A stretch of DNA of 64,000 nt. It comes from a virus (lineage: Duplodnaviria > Caudoviricetes). The stretch's first letter is position 1. Every line of letters starts with the position of its first letter. The notes beneath the pieces are model-generated. The model made no database searches. It saw only the letters and a program-made list of their open reading frames with translations, and was not told where the DNA came from. Shown piece after piece: positions 8,421 through 22,993 of the stretch. The position numbers were made by a program, and so were the translations under genes. The DNA lies in the IMG/VR virus record IMGVR_UViG_3300037400_002156, positions 64,001 to 128,000 of that record; one strand, written 5' to 3'.

Positions 8421-8588
8421 TTAGCGGTTTCTGAAGCGCTCAACTAATGATCTCTTTTTTGGAGATTCATTATTTTCGTGTTCACGCTCAAGATCTTCAT
8501 TCATCATTTTTTCTAAACGATTCATGCGCTTTTCGATTATAAGAGCACGTTTCTCATCATCAGAAAGCTTCTCATATTTATTTGCCAT
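8421..8588 (-). CDS. 55-aa protein carrying the shared coiled-coil leader motif (not in ORF track)
   Basis: MANKYEKLSDDEKRALIIEKRMNRLEKMMNEDLEREHENNESPKKRSLVERFRNR; GAGG RBS; terminator downstream. Confidence 0.75.
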   Translation of the reverse strand: MANKYEKLSDDEKRALIIEKRMNRLEKMMNEDLEREHENNESPKKRSLVERFRNR

Positions 8589-8600
8589 AATTACGCCTCA

Positions 8601-9908
8601 TTATGAGTTTAAAATTTTTGAATAACCACATGTGTTTACTGTTATATTATTATATAGATAATTTAGCTCAACGTAACTTTCATTTTCATCTATGCTAATG
8701 TTAAGAGCTGGATAATTATTATTCATATATCCTTCTTTTAAAAAAGATAGATTATTATTTTTATTATTAAAAAGATCTCTAATGTAATCTTTAATTAAAG
8801 AATTAATTGAATTCCATTGAGATTCGAATATTGAAATAAGAGTTATCCCAATATCTCTGCACTTCTTAAATTTGTTATAATGATAATCTTTATCTTTAAA
8901 TATATTTGAATGCCAATAGTCTCCGTTAAATTCTACTGCTATGGATATATCAGGGTAGTATAAGTCAAGCTCATAAGGTGAAATTATTTCGCGAGAGTTT
9001 CTTATACATTCTCCGTTATAGAAAGTAGAAATATAATTAGCTATTTCATCTTCATATTTAGAAGTTACAAGTGATCTTAAGCATTTAAAGCATAGCGGTA
9101 TAGATTTAATCTTATTAATAGAATAGTCAATAATATTACCTATTCTGTGAAATTCATAGTTACCGCATGCTGGACATCGTGTTCTAACTTTTTCTACAGA
9201 TAAAGTATTACCAGAAACTACATTGTCTAAATCATCTTCGTGAATAAAACTAAGATCAATAGATGATACATCATTAGATCTCTTAATTATGTTAGATTTA
9301 ATAAGTGATTCACTTTGTAACTTTGATTGCTGTAATTTCTTATCATAATTATTCTTAATGTAATCAGATAGTTTCTTTCCAGCAATTTTTCCAATGTAAG
9401 GATGTTCAATGTAAAAATTATGATGCTGTACACCCTGATTAATAAGAATTTCAGGATTATCTTCTAACGTTTTCTTACGTTTTTCTGTCTTAGACTTTAC
9501 TTTATCAGGATTATTTTTACACCATTCAGAGTATCTATTTCCTTTTTCTAGAAGTTCATCTTTATGATTCTTGCACCATTCAGAATATTTCTTACCTCTT
9601 TCTTTCAACTTATCCGGATTCTGTGATATCCAGTTTCTTACTTTTTCAGATATCTTCTTACTGATGTCTGGATTGTTTTTACATAATTCTCTAAATCTGT
9701 ATGCTTTCTCTTTAGATGAGTTATAACATCCACACGATGTTGTCTTTCCACCATATACTCTTTTTAAATCTTTAACAGTAATGTTACCACATTTACATTG
9801 ACACTTACATACGCGATTTCCATGTTCATCTCTAAAAACGTCTAGTATTGTAAGCCATCCATAAGTGTGCCCAATCATCTCTGTTTTATAATCATCTAAA
9901 GTTTTCAT
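8601..9908 (-). CDS. Free-standing homing endonuclease-like protein with C-terminal Vsr/DUF559-like PD-(D/E)XK domain
   Basis: CKCQCKCG...SCGC N-terminus, repeated WCKNNPD helices, ELDLYYPDISIAVEFNGDYWHS. Confidence 0.75.
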   Translation of the reverse strand: MKTLDDYKTEMIGHTYGWLTILDVFRDEHGNRVCKCQCKCGNITVKDLKRVYGGKTTSCGCYNSSKEKAYRFRELCKNNPDISKKISEKVRNWISQNPDKLKERGKKYSEWCKNHKDELLEKGNRYSEWCKNNPDKVKSKTEKRKKTLEDNPEILINQGVQHHNFYIEHPYIGKIAGKKLSDYIKNNYDKKLQQSKLQSESLIKSNIIKRSNDVSSIDLSFIHEDDLDNVVSGNTLSVEKVRTRCPACGNYEFHRIGNIIDYSINKIKSIPLCFKCLRSLVTSKYEDEIANYISTFYNGECIRNSREIISPYELDLYYPDISIAVEFNGDYWHSNIFKDKDYHYNKFKKCRDIGITLISIFESQWNSINSLIKDYIRDLFNNKNNNLSFLKEGYMNNNYPALNISIDENESYVELNYLYNNITVNTCGYSKILNS

Positions 9909-10042
9909 ATAAATATCTTATCTCTATTATATAAAAATAGCTAACGTAGAAATTAAACAATCTCTACATTAGCTATATACATAGAATTCTAATCTATTTA
10001 CATCTCATCAAAATTAAACTCTTCATCTTCTCCACCGCCTGG

Positions 10043-11515
10043 TCATTTACTGCCTTCAGATTCTCCACCTTCTTGTATTTCACCTGTTGAAAGTTTGTGA
10101 AGATTTAAAGCATCAACAATATCTTCATCATTAGAAACACGATTAAGAAGTGCTGCCATGAGCTTTGGCTTATTTGCTACGTTAAGAGCATTCTCATCAA
10201 CACCTTTAATAAGATCAAGAATTGAATTTGTAACCTCAATCTCTGACTTTTGAATGTCTGATAAACGAGTATCTTCAGCAGTTAAGATACGAGGCATTTC
10301 AACTGTAAAACTTGGTGGAAGTATGTTGTGTATTGAACAGAACCAATAAATAAGATCCTTCAAACCTGACTTAATAATTCGTTGACACCTTTTAACAGTA
10401 CGAGCATACCTAATGTCTAATTGAGTTAACGTGGTATCACCAATACCACCAGGAGCTTCATCAGACTGTCCTAAAAACTGCTTTGGAACTTTTAATGCAC
10501 CGTAATAACGATCATCAAAGTAGTCAATATCGGCAAGAGCAGATACATTTACTTCACCGCCAACTTCTTGTACAGTTACAGCACCTTGACCATTTCTTAC
10601 AGGGAAATAAACGTTGCCGCCTGTTAAAATTGGAGATGATTTTGAACTAAATACTTCGGTACTTACATTAATTGACTGTTTCGATGAAACTGCTGTTTTT
10701 AATTCCCTCATCATTCGTGCAGTATCTTGTGAAGATGCAGCACCAACATCAACAGAGAATAAACGATAGAATGAAGATCTTGTTAAACGTGCAAGAATAA
10801 GAAGATCGTCTAGCAACTGACGTTGTTTATAATATGGTCTTGCTGCTTCAAGAAATGAAGCACCATATTGAATATATGAATCTGATGATAAATTTTCTTT
10901 GTTTGCTCTATCAGAAATGAAATGAATAAACGATCTTTCTGGTAAAAGCTTATCTGTATCTACTAAAGATTTATCTTTACTCTGTGGTCTATATAGATAG
11001 CCAAGCGGAACTCCAAAACGATATATGTGAACTACATCTTCTGGCTCTGCTATAGTAAAGAAATCGCCAACATTATACTCCTTGCGATAATCTTCGTTTG
11101 AATAATTTGTGTCAAGAAAGCACTCACCGAAAGCAACGATATTAAATGCAAGAGGATAAATAATATCGTTTATACGAAGTTTGTTCTTTAAAAAGTCTGT
11201 TACCATCTCTGCAAAATCAGGATTATCTGCTGATTCAACCCATGCAGCTAATCCTGTATCAGCATCAATCAATGATGCATCTTCAGAAATTAATTCTACT
11301 GCGCTCATCGTGACGCCGTCTTTCAACATCTCACGATAATCTGCGATACGAGAAAGTCTATCATTAGAAAACTCTCTCAATGATGTTAGAATATTATTGT
11401 CTCTATTTAAAAATAAATTTTCTAATTTATCATCTCTTGCGTCATTTGTATCTTTAATGACTTCAACTTTATTTGAGAGGCCAAATAAATTTTTAAAAAA
11501 TGATTTAAGGCTCAT
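10043..11515 (-). CDS. Portal protein, T4 gp20-like
   Basis: DYREM, LARLTRSSFYRLFSVDVG, DIDYF...ALKVPKQFL, DIRYARTVKRCQ motifs. Confidence 0.9.
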   Translation of the reverse strand: MSLKSFFKNLFGLSNKVEVIKDTNDARDDKLENLFLNRDNNILTSLREFSNDRLSRIADYREMLKDGVTMSAVELISEDASLIDADTGLAAWVESADNPDFAEMVTDFLKNKLRINDIIYPLAFNIVAFGECFLDTNYSNEDYRKEYNVGDFFTIAEPEDVVHIYRFGVPLGYLYRPQSKDKSLVDTDKLLPERSFIHFISDRANKENLSSDSYIQYGASFLEAARPYYKQRQLLDDLLILARLTRSSFYRLFSVDVGAASSQDTARMMRELKTAVSSKQSINVSTEVFSSKSSPILTGGNVYFPVRNGQGAVTVQEVGGEVNVSALADIDYFDDRYYGALKVPKQFLGQSDEAPGGIGDTTLTQLDIRYARTVKRCQRIIKSGLKDLIYWFCSIHNILPPSFTVEMPRILTAEDTRLSDIQKSEIEVTNSILDLIKGVDENALNVANKPKLMAALLNRVSNDEDIVDALNLHKLSTGEIQEGGESEGSK

Positions 11516-19535: not shown

Positions 19536-20174
19536 TCACTCTCGGGTGTTCTCTTGCTCTTGAAGAGTGAAATTACCCTTGTCAGCTACATATATTCTAT
19601 CTCCATATTCAATGAACTTATTATCGTGTGTGATAAGAACTATAGATAATCCTGTTTCATCACATAGTGTTTTAATAAATTCCATGAACTGAGGAACATA
19701 CAATTTAGAAAGCTGACTTAATTGCTCATCAAGAAATAAATATTTCTGAACGTCTGTATTTATAATAAAGAAGATCTGAATAATAGTTGCAATTACAACT
19801 AATATTCCACCAGCAACATTTGAGTTCTTAATAGGAATAAGATTTCCATTATCATTTAACAGAAGTTCTACACATTTTGAATTTCTCTTATCTGTAACTT
19901 TAATCTGAACAGAATAGTCTCTATCATAGAATATCTGTTTTAGACCAAGTGTTAAAAGCTCTTCTAGCTTTCTTAGAAGTGAATCAGAGAATTTACTAAT
20001 AATATCATCAATAATTGGTTTGCATAATCGTAGAGTGTTTTTCTCACATTCTAGATCACTTATTTTAGATTCAATATCTTCAATAGAATGTTTCGTATTT
20101 TCAATTGAAGACTGAATGCCACGATATTTAATTAGAAGATTTGTTAGTTCACTCTCAAAATTTTGGTCAATCAT
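19536..20174 (-). CDS. SbcC/Rad50-like ATPase, C-terminal half
   Basis: Coiled coil, then VAGG signature, YLFLDE Walker B, ITHD H-loop; no Walker A. Confidence 0.85.
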   Translation of the reverse strand: MIDQNFESELTNLLIKYRGIQSSIENTKHSIEDIESKISDLECEKNTLRLCKPIIDDIISKFSDSLLRKLEELLTLGLKQIFYDRDYSVQIKVTDKRNSKCVELLLNDNGNLIPIKNSNVAGGILVVIATIIQIFFIINTDVQKYLFLDEQLSQLSKLYVPQFMEFIKTLCDETGLSIVLITHDNKFIEYGDRIYVADKGNFTLQEQENTRE

Positions 20175-20440: not shown

Positions 20441-20509
20441 TTATTTAAATAATAAATATTATTTTATATTATATAATAAATAAATATATATATATTTTAT
20501 TATTTTATT
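20441..20509. other. 69-bp A/T-only tract, candidate DNA-unwinding element
   Basis: No G or C from 20441 to 20509; abuts the tandem repeats. Confidence 0.6.
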
Positions 20510-20605
20510 GATTAGAATTTTGATTAGAATTTTGATTAGAATTTTGATTAGAATTTTGATTAGAATTTTGATTAGAATTTTGATTAGAATTTTGATTAGA
20601 ATTTT
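20510..20605. repeat. 8 perfect tandem copies of GATTAGAATTTT (candidate iterons)
   Basis: Counted directly at 20510, 20522 ... 20594. Confidence 0.95.
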
Positions 20606-20684
20606 GATTTTGAGTTTCAGCTTCTTTAGTTCATAAACGACTTATTTCAATCTTATGAACCTTCAATAATGAACTTCTTAGAAA

Positions 20685-20965
20685 GAAAAGAGTGGAAAAA
20701 GCGGCTCACTCTTTTGAGTTCATCATTGAAGATACCCTGCCGTCCGGGTTTATTGCTTGTATGTCTCATATCCTTCTGTTGTTGATGGACCATACGAAAT
20801 GTGCTTATTCAGTCGATGAACAGTTCAACATCTCTATTTAATAGAAGCTGCAGTCTTCAATTAAACTGGTAAGAAGGCTTAGGGCAGATATGGCAATCGC
20901 CAGTTGTACAAACGATATATAGCAGTATCTCCAACCAGGACATCGTGGTGCGTTATTGGCTACAC
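20685..20965 (-). ncRNA. Candidate structured ncRNA A (~280 nt)
   Basis: GC-richer, no ORF, five nested long-range helices, TATAAT upstream, hairpin at the 3' end. Confidence 0.6.
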
Positions 20966-21132
20966 AAGTAATTATATACATTTAAGTATTTAGCAATTTA
21001 ATTTAGATATAAAAATATTCCTAATAATGATTGTAATTCACTATTAGGAATATTCAATTCTAATAATTGATTCAGCTATTAGCAAACTGTCATACCGATC
21101 TAGAACAGTATGAAGCAACCTATTCGTTGCCA

Positions 21133-21209
21133 TTAAACGACTGGAATCGAACCAGTTTCTATATTAGAATATATTCTAATATATGCTTTACCTAATAAGC
21201 TACATTCAA
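21133..21209 (-). tRNA. tRNA-like element with no anticodon loop
   Basis: Acceptor TTGAATG/CGTTTAA, D arm GCTT/AAGC, T arm ACTGG-TTCGATT-CCAGT; anticodon arm is a 24-nt palindrome. Confidence 0.65.
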
Positions 21210-21314: not shown

Positions 21315-21388
21315 GTTAGGCGATAAGATTAGAGTTTACGACTTCAAAAACCATAATCTTATGTTCTACTAACTGAACTACACCTAAC
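21315..21388 (-). tRNA. Degenerate tRNA-His-like gene, anticodon ATG
   Basis: G-1:C73 pair, acceptor TTAGGTG/CGCCTAA, D arm GTTC/GAAC, loop TT-ATG-GT, decayed T loop CTCTAAT. Confidence 0.6.
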
Positions 21389-21394
21389 AAAGAA

Positions 21395-21670
21395 TTATCT
21401 TCATGAGATAACCTTTTAAATCTGATGCCTCACCTTAATTGGCAATCTGGATTATCACCCACTAGTGAATGACCTCTAGAAAGTCTCCTAGCTGCTAAAG
21501 GACTACCTTTTGAGTAGTAGGTGTTCCAAGTGCAGAATTACCTATATCACTATAGGTTACGATAATCCTAAGCGGCCGTGTACTTAAGTCCCATACGGGA
21601 TTATCGACTTCATCGAGTCTTCTGGTTGAGCATTATCTGAGGTACCAAGTAAGAGGCTTGAAGACTACTA
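21395..21670 (-). ncRNA. Candidate structured ncRNA B (~270 nt); strand inferred from context
   Basis: Dense series of hairpins, e.g. CGATAATCC/GGATTATCG, AGTCTTC/GAAGACT, ACCTATA-GTGA-TATAGGT (GNRA loop on minus strand); no ORF. Confidence 0.55.
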
Positions 21671-21700
21671 TTAATTATTTAGATATAATAAGTTAGTTTA

Positions 21701-21883: not shown

Positions 21884-22993
21884 TTATCTGTTATAAATAT
21901 TAATGATTGCCTGTGTATTGCTGTCAAATAGAATAATGCTATTCTGATTACTCAGCATTTCATCAGAAATATAGATATTGATATCTCTAGATCGCTTATC
22001 TTGAAATAGTTTTAACGCCTTTAGTAAATTATGTGATGATACTTCAGCCTCACTAGATGTGTCTTGTACGTCACCTACAGGCGTAGATTTTACGATCGAG
22101 CTATGCTTTGCTGCAAGAACATTTTTAATGCTCACATTAAGTTTACCATTTTTAATAGACATTCCTATAATATGCTTAGAAGCAGAATACTCTTCTGAAA
22201 ACATTGTTAACTTAAATAACTCATCTCCATTTATGCTTAGATAATTATTTAAGTTATTATTATATTCTAGATTATTCGAATCAATTCCAGCTGCAATTAC
22301 AGTAAATTTAAAATTTGGACCTACAAATAATAGTTTTTCTGCAATAGAAGATTCTATTTTACATATTCTAAGATCAAAATTATCCTTTAATAATAATCTT
22401 AGCATAGAAGCATCATCCCTATGCAGAGTCATTTCAACAAAATCATCTGACATAATAACACTAGACAATCTAGAAGTTACTACCATTTGAGTCTTGCTAA
22501 ATTGAATATACTTATCACGAGCATATGTATATTCCTGAGTATAACCTAAAACAGATGATATAGCATTTCTTAATTTTACAGAGTTTATAGTACCGAGCTC
22601 AGTCTGAATACCATCAACTTTGTATTTGTTAATGTCTACGTCAACTGATCTAAAAGGAATCCATCCATTACCTATTACATTGAACTCATACTGGTTGTAA
22701 CTTTTACGAATAGTAAATTTATCATTATCAGTACTCTTAATAAGAGCATATAAATCAGTAACTGGTGCTGCTATAACTTCATTTATCTGATCACTAGTAT
22801 CATACAATTCTACATTATACTCTATTATATTAGAGACGTCATCTACAGCTCTGCATACCAACTTACTATCTTCAACAGATAACGTAGCAATTCTAGATCC
22901 TTTTACTTTATCTCTAGTGTTCATTGATTTTACAAATAATATGAAATTAGTAAAATCATTCCCATTAAATTTCAAATAATATACTTTATCCAT
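21884..22993 (-). CDS. Probable sliding clamp (DnaN/beta-like)
   Basis: 369 aa (beta-clamp length), three repeats of a strand-helix pattern (FNGNDF, INSVKL, INGDEL), replication context. Confidence 0.6.
   Translation of the reverse strand: MDKVYYLKFNGNDFTNFILFVKSMNTRDKVKGSRIATLSVEDSKLVCRAVDDVSNIIEYNVELYDTSDQINEVIAAPVTDLYALIKSTDNDKFTIRKSYNQYEFNVIGNGWIPFRSVDVDINKYKVDGIQTELGTINSVKLRNAISSVLGYTQEYTYARDKYIQFSKTQMVVTSRLSSVIMSDDFVEMTLHRDDASMLRLLLKDNFDLRICKIESSIAEKLLFVGPNFKFTVIAAGIDSNNLEYNNNLNNYLSINGDELFKLTMFSEEYSASKHIIGMSIKNGKLNVSIKNVLAAKHSSIVKSTPVGDVQDTSSEAEVSSHNLLKALKLFQDKRSRDINIYISDEMLSNQNSIILFDSNTQAIINIYNR

Follow-up and report, generated by a model that had tools for sequence, protein, structure and literature searches.

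A structured RNA of about 340 nt, encoded on the minus strand of an uncultured phage genome, maintains its fold through compensatory base changes in related uncultured jumbo phages of gut and rumen, and we are highly confident that it represents a real and new RNA family. It lies directly upstream of a tandem array of short direct repeats, which is followed by an A/T-only tract. Our favoured reading, still a tentative one, is that RNA, repeats and tract form a single iteron-type replication origin module resembling T4 oriE, in which the folded RNA would be the origin transcript. The sequence analysed (the window) is a stretch of 64,000 nt comprising bases 64001–128000 of an IMG/VR virus record of 204,068 bp that is estimated to be 95% complete. 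The genome is AT-rich, with about 30% G+C in the window, where every non-nested open reading frame (ORF) of at least 100 aa lies on the minus strand. Coordinates of the features discussed below are collected in Table 1; L-numbers denote loci in related phage contigs that were compared with the window.

The RNA is located within a 1.7-kb gap bounded by a 369-aa ORF (21884–22993) and a 212-aa ATPase fragment (19536–20174). Genes nearby include a Toprim primase-like gene, a Metallophos (SbcD-like) gene, an AAA_23 gene (similar to the N-half of SbcC/Rad50), HU-like and RecA-like genes, and a dCMP deaminase gene. Read along the minus strand, the gap contains a conserved 53-aa ORF, an element designated RNA2 (21390–21700), two tRNA-like genes, hairpins of an 8-mer word, the stretch flagged for study, the 12-bp repeats and the A/T tract. 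The 369-aa ORF is strongly conserved, with about 100 relatives at 41–72% identity, and has no Pfam or PHROG match. RNA2, also on the minus strand, is 80–92% conserved in L156, L152, L151, L007, L009 and L006, with a weaker, partial match (71%) in L155, and is interrupted by an insert of ca. 400 nt in L151, L007 and L009. At the position corresponding to RNA2, just after the small conserved ORF, L159 carries a true tmRNA (8568–8937, 172 bits). L151 harbors a HEARO RNA (9301–9514, 87 bits, above threshold) followed by a 420-aa RRXRR+HNH ORF (9592–10854); the two make up an IscB-like element that has inserted into this island in one relative. The tRNA-like gene at 21132–21209 contains a 16-nt insert in its anticodon arm that is an inverted pair of the repeat word, and ARAGORN assigns it no anticodon identity; the one at 21315–21387 is not called by ARAGORN, which found no tmRNA in the window. 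Reading the window with genetic-code table 4 gave no notable longer ORF. A blastn search of INPHARED phage records returned no match, and relatives of the window's RecA-like protein reach only about 28% identity.

The first-pass annotation had proposed, from the window alone, an RNA of about 280 nt at 20685–20965 with five nested long-range helices and several side hairpins. All of the short complementary words that it listed are present on the minus strand of this stretch. The window sequence alone would establish no structure: the minimum free energy (MFE) of the flagged stretch on the minus strand is −62.9 kcal/mol versus −60.8 ± 4.6 kcal/mol for shuffles (z = −0.46), and the plus strand gives z = −0.58. 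A fold no better than that of shuffled sequences, together with small ORFs of 46–49 aa that overlap the RNA region, is what would be expected of chance complementarity in an AT-rich spacer or of a decayed or short protein-coding gene, and homologous sequences speak to both.

Relatives of the adjacent 369-aa protein provided the entry to syntenic viral contigs. Two of these (L002 and L005) contain a stretch that shares 52–58% identity with the flagged region; in it, identical blocks alternate with variable segments. The most conserved block, the core of a stem termed Pu, was used as a search pattern on metagenome contigs, where it revealed four more loci and about 80 of 89 matches were due to chance, and on prokaryote species genomes. 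Contigs of ten further relatives of the 369-aa protein contributed six more loci. The homologues obtained with nhmmer and covariance models comprise 13 loci with 11 distinct sequences, which are 51–84% identical to one another apart from near-duplicates and come from related phage contigs in rumen and gut metagenome assemblies. In 185,579 prokaryote species genomes (one genome each), the core pattern occurred at 44 places, which we regard as chance matches because none fits the family profile. Covariance models R1 and R2 detected no further members in L003, L006–L014, L151, L156 and L158–L160. The family thus seems to be restricted to a single clade of uncultured phages.

For the covariation analysis, two covariance models were built, one for a 3' domain and one for a 5' domain, and all members were realigned to them; alignments with the 3' partners slid by 1–3 columns and 500 shuffles served as controls. 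The analysis supports twelve helices with 81 pairs overall, in which 86–93% of cells are paired versus 34–45% in the slid controls. In the 3' domain, 43 pairs in six helices are formed in 86.4% of cells (37–45% slid), 31 of them change on both sides (11–17 slid), and the covariation score of 0.545 (0.12–0.16 slid) was reached by none of the 500 shuffles. The 5' domain contributes 38 pairs, likewise in six helices, with 93.0% of cells paired (34–43% slid), 21 pairs changing on both sides (5–9 slid) and a score of 0.415 (0.05–0.12 slid), again reached by 0 of 500 shuffles. Alignments fitted to models somewhat favour structure, but the margin is large, and unaided single-sequence MFE folding of each homologue's 3' domain gives the same layout. 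Eleven distinct homologues thus keep 81 pairs via compensatory changes; moreover, indel lengths in the region are not divisible by three, and the homologues do not retain the small ORFs. For practical purposes, the domain covariation refutes a stretch without function, to which we assign a negligible probability.

Across the alignment there are 101 G·U cells versus 18 A·C cells, an excess that assigns the fold to the minus strand of the window. Covariation by itself would be equal for an RNA and for DNA of the same strand, and the element adjoins an origin-like array, so that the structure could in principle form in single-stranded DNA, either in the displaced strand of an opened origin or as a priming signal of the single-strand-origin type. 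We consider this very improbable, as G·U-type pairs are abundant and in several cases invariant, RNA tertiary folds typically combine loop–loop contacts with long joining strands that do not vary, as seen here, and a terminator-like hairpin and a likely promoter box lie directly upstream.

Table 1. Features of the RNA and its surroundings. Positions refer to the window unless a locus in a relative is named.
Feature	Position	Strand	Remarks
tRNA-like genes	21315-21387 and 21132-21209	-	Rfam tRNA matches; sole Rfam matches in the window
Terminator-like hairpin with T run	21013-21055	-	Stem of 18 pairs with a loop of 7, then a T-rich tail; marks the end of the tRNA-like unit upstream
TGTATATAAT box, likely extended -10 promoter element	20971-20980	-	Just after the terminator-like hairpin
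Structured RNA, minimum extent	20625-20965	-	5' domain 20753-20947 and 3' domain 20614-20761; from nhmmer and covariance-model matches, covariation and strand test
Helix H1, one bulge	20932-20941 with 20896-20906	-	10 bp; encloses Pz
Hairpin Pz	20926-20929 with 20914-20917	-	Inside H1; 5' domain helix 2
Long-range helix Pe	20882-20886 with 20762-20766	-	Closes three-way junction (Pv, Pu)
Inner helix Pc	20872-20877 with 20772-20777	-	Within Pe; window and L152 only
Variable hairpin Pv	20837-20865	-	All 6 pairs change on both sides; sequence different in every lineage
Stem Pu	20796-20834 (core 20802-20827)	-	Invariant internal loop and conserved apical hairpin; 5' domain helices 5 and 6
Single-stranded motif UACAARCAA	20753-20761	-	Invariant in 11 of 11 sequences; joins the two domains
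Hairpin Px	20735-20748	-	3' domain helix 1; loop pairs with Pt loop
Helix Ps	20717-20730 with 20662-20675	-	14 bp in the window (7-14 bp in members); encloses Pt
Hairpin Pt	20707-20715 with 20686-20694, loop 20695-20706 (12 nt)	-	The downstream hairpin of the first-pass annotation; 3' domain helix 4
Hairpin Ph2, 8 + 4 bp	20629-20660	-	Conserved GAAAKA hexaloop; 3' domain helices 5 and 6
A-rich tail	20612-20628	-	After Ph2; no U run
Eight 12-bp direct repeats	20510-20611	.	Begin a few bases after the RNA
A/T-only tract, 69 bp	20441-20509	.	Comparable tracts in L005, L003 and L007
95-102-aa ORF directly upstream of the RNA	L002 8645-8932; L149 8334-8633; L152 8287-8574; L153 8894-9190; L155 9991-10299
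Non-coding inserts between repeat copies or blocks	L002 ~9340-9540; L005 8910-9520; L059 6095-6600; L093 7960-8610; L003 ~10950-11390
Class-2 RNA candidate, ~400 nt	L003 10470-10880; L159 10585-10935; L006 7848-8273; L007, L008, L009 8425-8850

Set against the alignment of 11 sequences (A9), the observation is confirmed in part, but most of the structure drawn in the first-pass annotation proves wrong. Four of its five nested helices were tested and show no covariation; 57.7% of their cells are paired versus 34–49% when slid, and their score of 0.052 was reached by 266 of 500 shuffles. TTGTA/TACAA is invariant in A9 and uninformative because it never varies. CATATC/GATATG, with pairing in 42% of cells, and TGTTGA/TCAACA, for which 9 of 11 sequences have gaps, are window-specific. 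For CCTTCT/AGAAGG, compensatory changes preserve the pairing in the window and L152 but in no other sequence. GAGATAC/GTATCTT, the outermost of the five, is not retained in L005, L157 and L102 in the alignment as read by eye; its 5' strand instead forms the local covarying hairpin Pz. Among the side hairpins, TTCA-TCGAC-TGAA belongs to the conserved fold as helix 6 of the 5' domain, and the other listed ones fall outside it. TTGTA/TACAA and a 3-bp CCC/GGG pairing represent candidate helices beyond the twelve supported.

Within the 5' domain, all pairs of H1 and Pz are formed in the window, 96–98% of cells are paired across the family, and 5 of 10 and 2 of 4 pairs, respectively, change on both sides. 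Only the first two of the words CCUGG, CUGG and CCAG, which make up H1, hold in L152 and L149. Two positions of the long-range helix Pe covary perfectly in all 11 sequences (C-G/U-A and G-C/A-U); the window itself forms three of the five pairs, with two C·A oppositions, and an alternative 3-bp register is compensated. Pu with its apical hairpin is the best-conserved part of the family. In the 3' domain, helices 2–4 (Ps and Pt) change on both sides at 9 of 10, 3 of 4 and 8 of 11 pairs, and Ph2 at 7 of 8 pairs, with 98–100% of its cells paired. In each of the 11 sequences, the Px loop is able to pair with the Pt loop through a run of 4–9 lineage-specific Watson-Crick pairs, i.e., four G-C pairs in the window and 5–9 pairs in the others, and none of 2000 shuffles of the Pt loop reached the observed sum. 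As far as the sequences indicate, this contact could form equally within one molecule or between molecules.

Upstream of the RNA, the presence of TGTATATAAT, which the first-pass annotation had pointed out, was confirmed. This box occurs 16 times in the 204-kb genome, 12 times on the minus and four times on the plus strand, where about two copies per strand are expected, corresponding to a roughly 5-fold enrichment on the gene strand. Several copies elsewhere are located between a terminator hairpin and a ribosome-binding site with ATG. These features suggest that TGTATATAAT is probably a promoter element of the phage. L005 and L157 likewise have the box ahead of the RNA, and terminator-like hairpins equivalent to that in the window occur upstream of the RNA in L005, L157, L102 and L059. 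A consensus scan gave no −35 match for the box at the RNA, whose first conserved bases are at about 20964, and no promoter-like site on the plus strand within 20625–20965. In five other lineages, the RNA follows about 15–40 nt after an ORF of ca. 95 aa. This 95–102-aa ORF, of which the window's genome has no copy, gives consistent, sub-threshold matches to AsiA (anti-sigma factor A; E 0.008–0.04, residues 4–28).

A hairpin formed by AAAAGAGTG and CACTCTTTT that the first-pass annotation had listed downstream, a candidate terminator, is here termed Pt. The hairpin is real and covaries, but it is not the 3' end, since it is enclosed by the covarying helix Ps. Pt has a 12-nt loop and was not called by the terminator scan. 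Its position inside Ps, with the covarying Ph2 following, implies that the functional RNA reaches at least to about 20625, which replaces the proposed length of ca. 280 nt by ca. 340 nt. By eye, a U run follows Pt in the window and in about half of the homologues, with none in L102, L059, L005 and L157, and a shorter form of the RNA ending at Pt may therefore also be made; Pt would at most be a leaky stop. Between Ph2 and the repeats, the scan revealed no terminator-like site.

Searches of the window against Rfam 15, at gathering thresholds and at E up to 10, returned nothing on the RNA, including ROOL, GOLLD, HEARO, pRNA and introns. At gathering thresholds, none of the homologues was matched in searches of 16 relatives' loci, in which tRNA, tmRNA and HEARO were detected elsewhere. 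Together with the strong covariation among homologues, these results bear out the suggestion of a novel non-coding RNA unlike tmRNA, RNase P RNA, 6S RNA or introns, for which an Rfam search and a covariation analysis had been named as checks. The RNA is not in Rfam 15 and did not surface in a literature search, which did not target this RNA directly. Ornate phage RNAs and origin transcripts both provide precedents for an RNA of this kind; what is new is the combination of this fold with an adjoining repeat array and with the two exchangeable classes described below. Two other candidates were rejected. A CAGACUA-like word resembles, by eye, the R element of group I introns, but there is no P7 partner, no flanking exons and no model match. 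For an orphan omega/HEARO-type guide RNA, the window provides neither an adjacent IscB or TnpB gene nor a HEARO match, whereas L151 does contain a true HEARO.

The position of the RNA relative to the repeats is fixed. Wherever the DNA downstream of a homologue was examined, the RNA lies directly upstream of the first copy of a lineage-specific repeat, while its upstream neighbours vary between tRNA-like genes, the ca. 95-aa ORF and a bare terminator. In five lineages, period-12 arrays with units specific to each lineage begin 1–5 nt past the end of the modelled RNA; these are the window, L153, L152 and L155, in which the arrays are perfect, and the class-2 relative L159. L002 contains two array blocks about 270 nt apart. 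In L005, L157, L102, L059 and L093, two copies of a ca. 50-nt repeat flank 480–650 nt of unrelated, G+C-richer non-coding DNA, after which an A/T-rich tract follows. No relationship links the inserts between repeats (270–650 nt) of different lineages, and none has an Rfam match; the array apparently serves as their landing site. Single copies of the repeat word TTGATTAGAA also occur outside the island, in one orientation, at genome positions 77982, 79536 and 89183 (window 13982, 15536 and 25183); one of these precedes the RecA-like gene by about 110 nt. The contigs of L152, L156, L157, L158, L159 and L160 end at, or close to, repeat arrays, 0.4–2.9 kb downstream of the 369-aa ORF, most simply because assemblies break at tandem repeats.

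This close junction might also mean that RNA and repeats are one functional molecule, in which a tail of eight identical 12-nt units would bind many copies of a protein, as a sponge or an assembly platform. In line with this idea, body and array are not separated by a terminator, the arrays begin within the few nucleotides given above, and a semi-conserved short motif occurs at the junction in both RNA classes. We nevertheless regard such a tail as improbable. The near-perfect identity of the units points to slippage at the DNA level, the word is also found elsewhere, both in inverted pairs and singly (e.g., near the RecA-like gene), which suits a DNA-binding protein, and some lineages have only two dispersed copies of ca. 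50 nt.

More distant relatives without the RNA carry a second, class-2 RNA candidate in the same slot, in the order terminator, TGTATAT-type box, RNA and 12-nt array; the TGTATATAAT box itself precedes it in L003 and L007. The candidate shows some covariation with five sequences. It has in common with the RNA studied here only UACAARCAA, present in L003, L159 and L007, and the short motif at the array junction. The two classes never co-occur in the loci examined.

Several features, taken from sequence comparison, argue for an origin. The junction between RNA and array is strict despite variable surroundings and lacks a terminator, and a second RNA class would occupy the same slot. The genes around the evenly spaced 12-bp direct repeats and the A/T tract include those for primase, SbcCD-like, HU-like and RecA-like proteins, and a terminator-like hairpin and an enriched promoter-type box are found upstream. 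The RNA would probably be transcribed from its own TGTATATAAT-type promoter just after the terminator. As there is no terminator after the last hairpin, transcription should continue into the eight 12-bp repeats and the 69-bp A/T tract. The folded origin transcript would then open or activate the origin, and it may become the leading-strand primer, as the R-loop RNAs at T4 oriF and oriG and RNA II at ColE1 do. The conserved fold with its loop–loop contact might place the 3' part of the transcript on the repeats and the A/T tract and thereby trigger or prime initiation. Doubtful, if possible, is the more specific proposal that the RNA is an exchangeable, integral origin component in a clade of T4-like jumbo phages, in which fold and loop–loop contact position the 3' part in this manner and two unrelated-looking classes fill the same slot.

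The arrangement resembles T4 oriE, where evenly spaced 12-nt iterons are combined with a transcript from an early promoter (PMC3016281), as compared to eight units at 12-bp spacing here. T4-type genes are present, namely T4_baseplate in relatives and those for primase, SbcCD-like and RecA-like proteins in the window; a candidate promoter of host type upstream points into the repeats, and relatives have syntenic arrays, each with its own unit. In contrast to oriE, for which no conserved ornate RNA has been described, the origin here is putative, and the role of the iterons is undefined even for T4 oriE (PMC3016281). The locus resembles those of ColE1 RNA II and the T4 oriF and oriG R-loop primers in that the transcript would start a few hundred nucleotides upstream of an easily melted region, and RNA II likewise needs a specific fold to act at its origin; these primers share no sequence or structural similarity with the RNA described here.

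Other observations count against an origin. The genome shows no turn of GC skew at the locus (84.7 kb); the skew changes sign at about 136 kb and tracks gene direction. The T4 origin transcripts known so far need no ornate fold. Inserts in L002, L003, L005, L102, L059 and L093 split the repeats and displace the A/T tract far from the RNA. As a whole, the earlier interpretation of the flagged stretch is partly supported; that the RNA would be a primer or R-loop RNA is a reasonable hypothesis. The argument from the direction of the RNA fails, because every gene in the window shares the strand of the RNA and direction therefore carries no information, and the GC-skew switch lies elsewhere. What speaks for the idea is position, in that a repeat array follows within a few bases of the RNA and no terminator appears to intervene.

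The island also fits a plain island of non-coding RNAs, the setting of ROOL and GOLLD, which are phage RNAs found near tRNA islands. It contains the two tRNA-like genes and another conserved non-coding element, to which relatives add a tmRNA (L159) and HEARO (L151). The RNA could accordingly be an ornate, trans-acting phage RNA of the ROOL/GOLLD kind, with loops that possibly multimerise molecules and an array that is unrelated or a recombination hot spot for cassettes. Its multi-helix fold with invariant joining strands and the unrelated inserts that split arrays in several lineages would agree with this alternative, which we consider possible but rather unlikely. It is at odds with the absence of any defined 3' end, such as a terminator, downstream of Ph2, with the strict link between the 3' end of the RNA and the first repeat while upstream neighbours vary, with a second RNA class in the same array-adjacent slot of other relatives, and with the absence of a match to the ROOL or GOLLD models.

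ROOL (RF03087) and GOLLD (RF01998) are, like the RNA reported here, phage-encoded, located in or beside tRNA islands and found in rumen and gut samples, and they have many covarying helices with covarying loop–loop contacts. The present RNA differs in giving no covariance-model match even at E up to 10, in its restriction to one phage clade and in its tie to a repeat array. It is also smaller, with ca. 340 nt versus over 800 nt for GOLLD; ROOL measures roughly 580 nt. Lineage-specific complementary loops are also known from phi29 pRNA (RF00044), a phage RNA in which two such loops covary between relatives despite drift of the primary sequence. The RNA described here does not match the pRNA model, is twice the size, and is found among replication and recombination genes of a T4-like phage, with no phi29-type packaging motor. 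A kissing loop of ROOL that covariation had predicted to be intramolecular proved to be intermolecular (10.1101/2024.12.08.627333).

Large RNA classes with comparable covariation support are uncommon, and OLE, ROOL, GOLLD and HEARO/omega RNA each led to new biology. The present family offers experimental handles in the attached origin-like array, a testable loop–loop contact and a second RNA class in the same slot. Should the link to an origin be false, it would still be a new ornate phage RNA that adds to the problem posed by ROOL and GOLLD. If the link is true, it would provide a concrete RNA partner for the long-unexplained iterons of the T4 oriE type and would place a structured RNA in the initiation of phage replication, outside plasmids.
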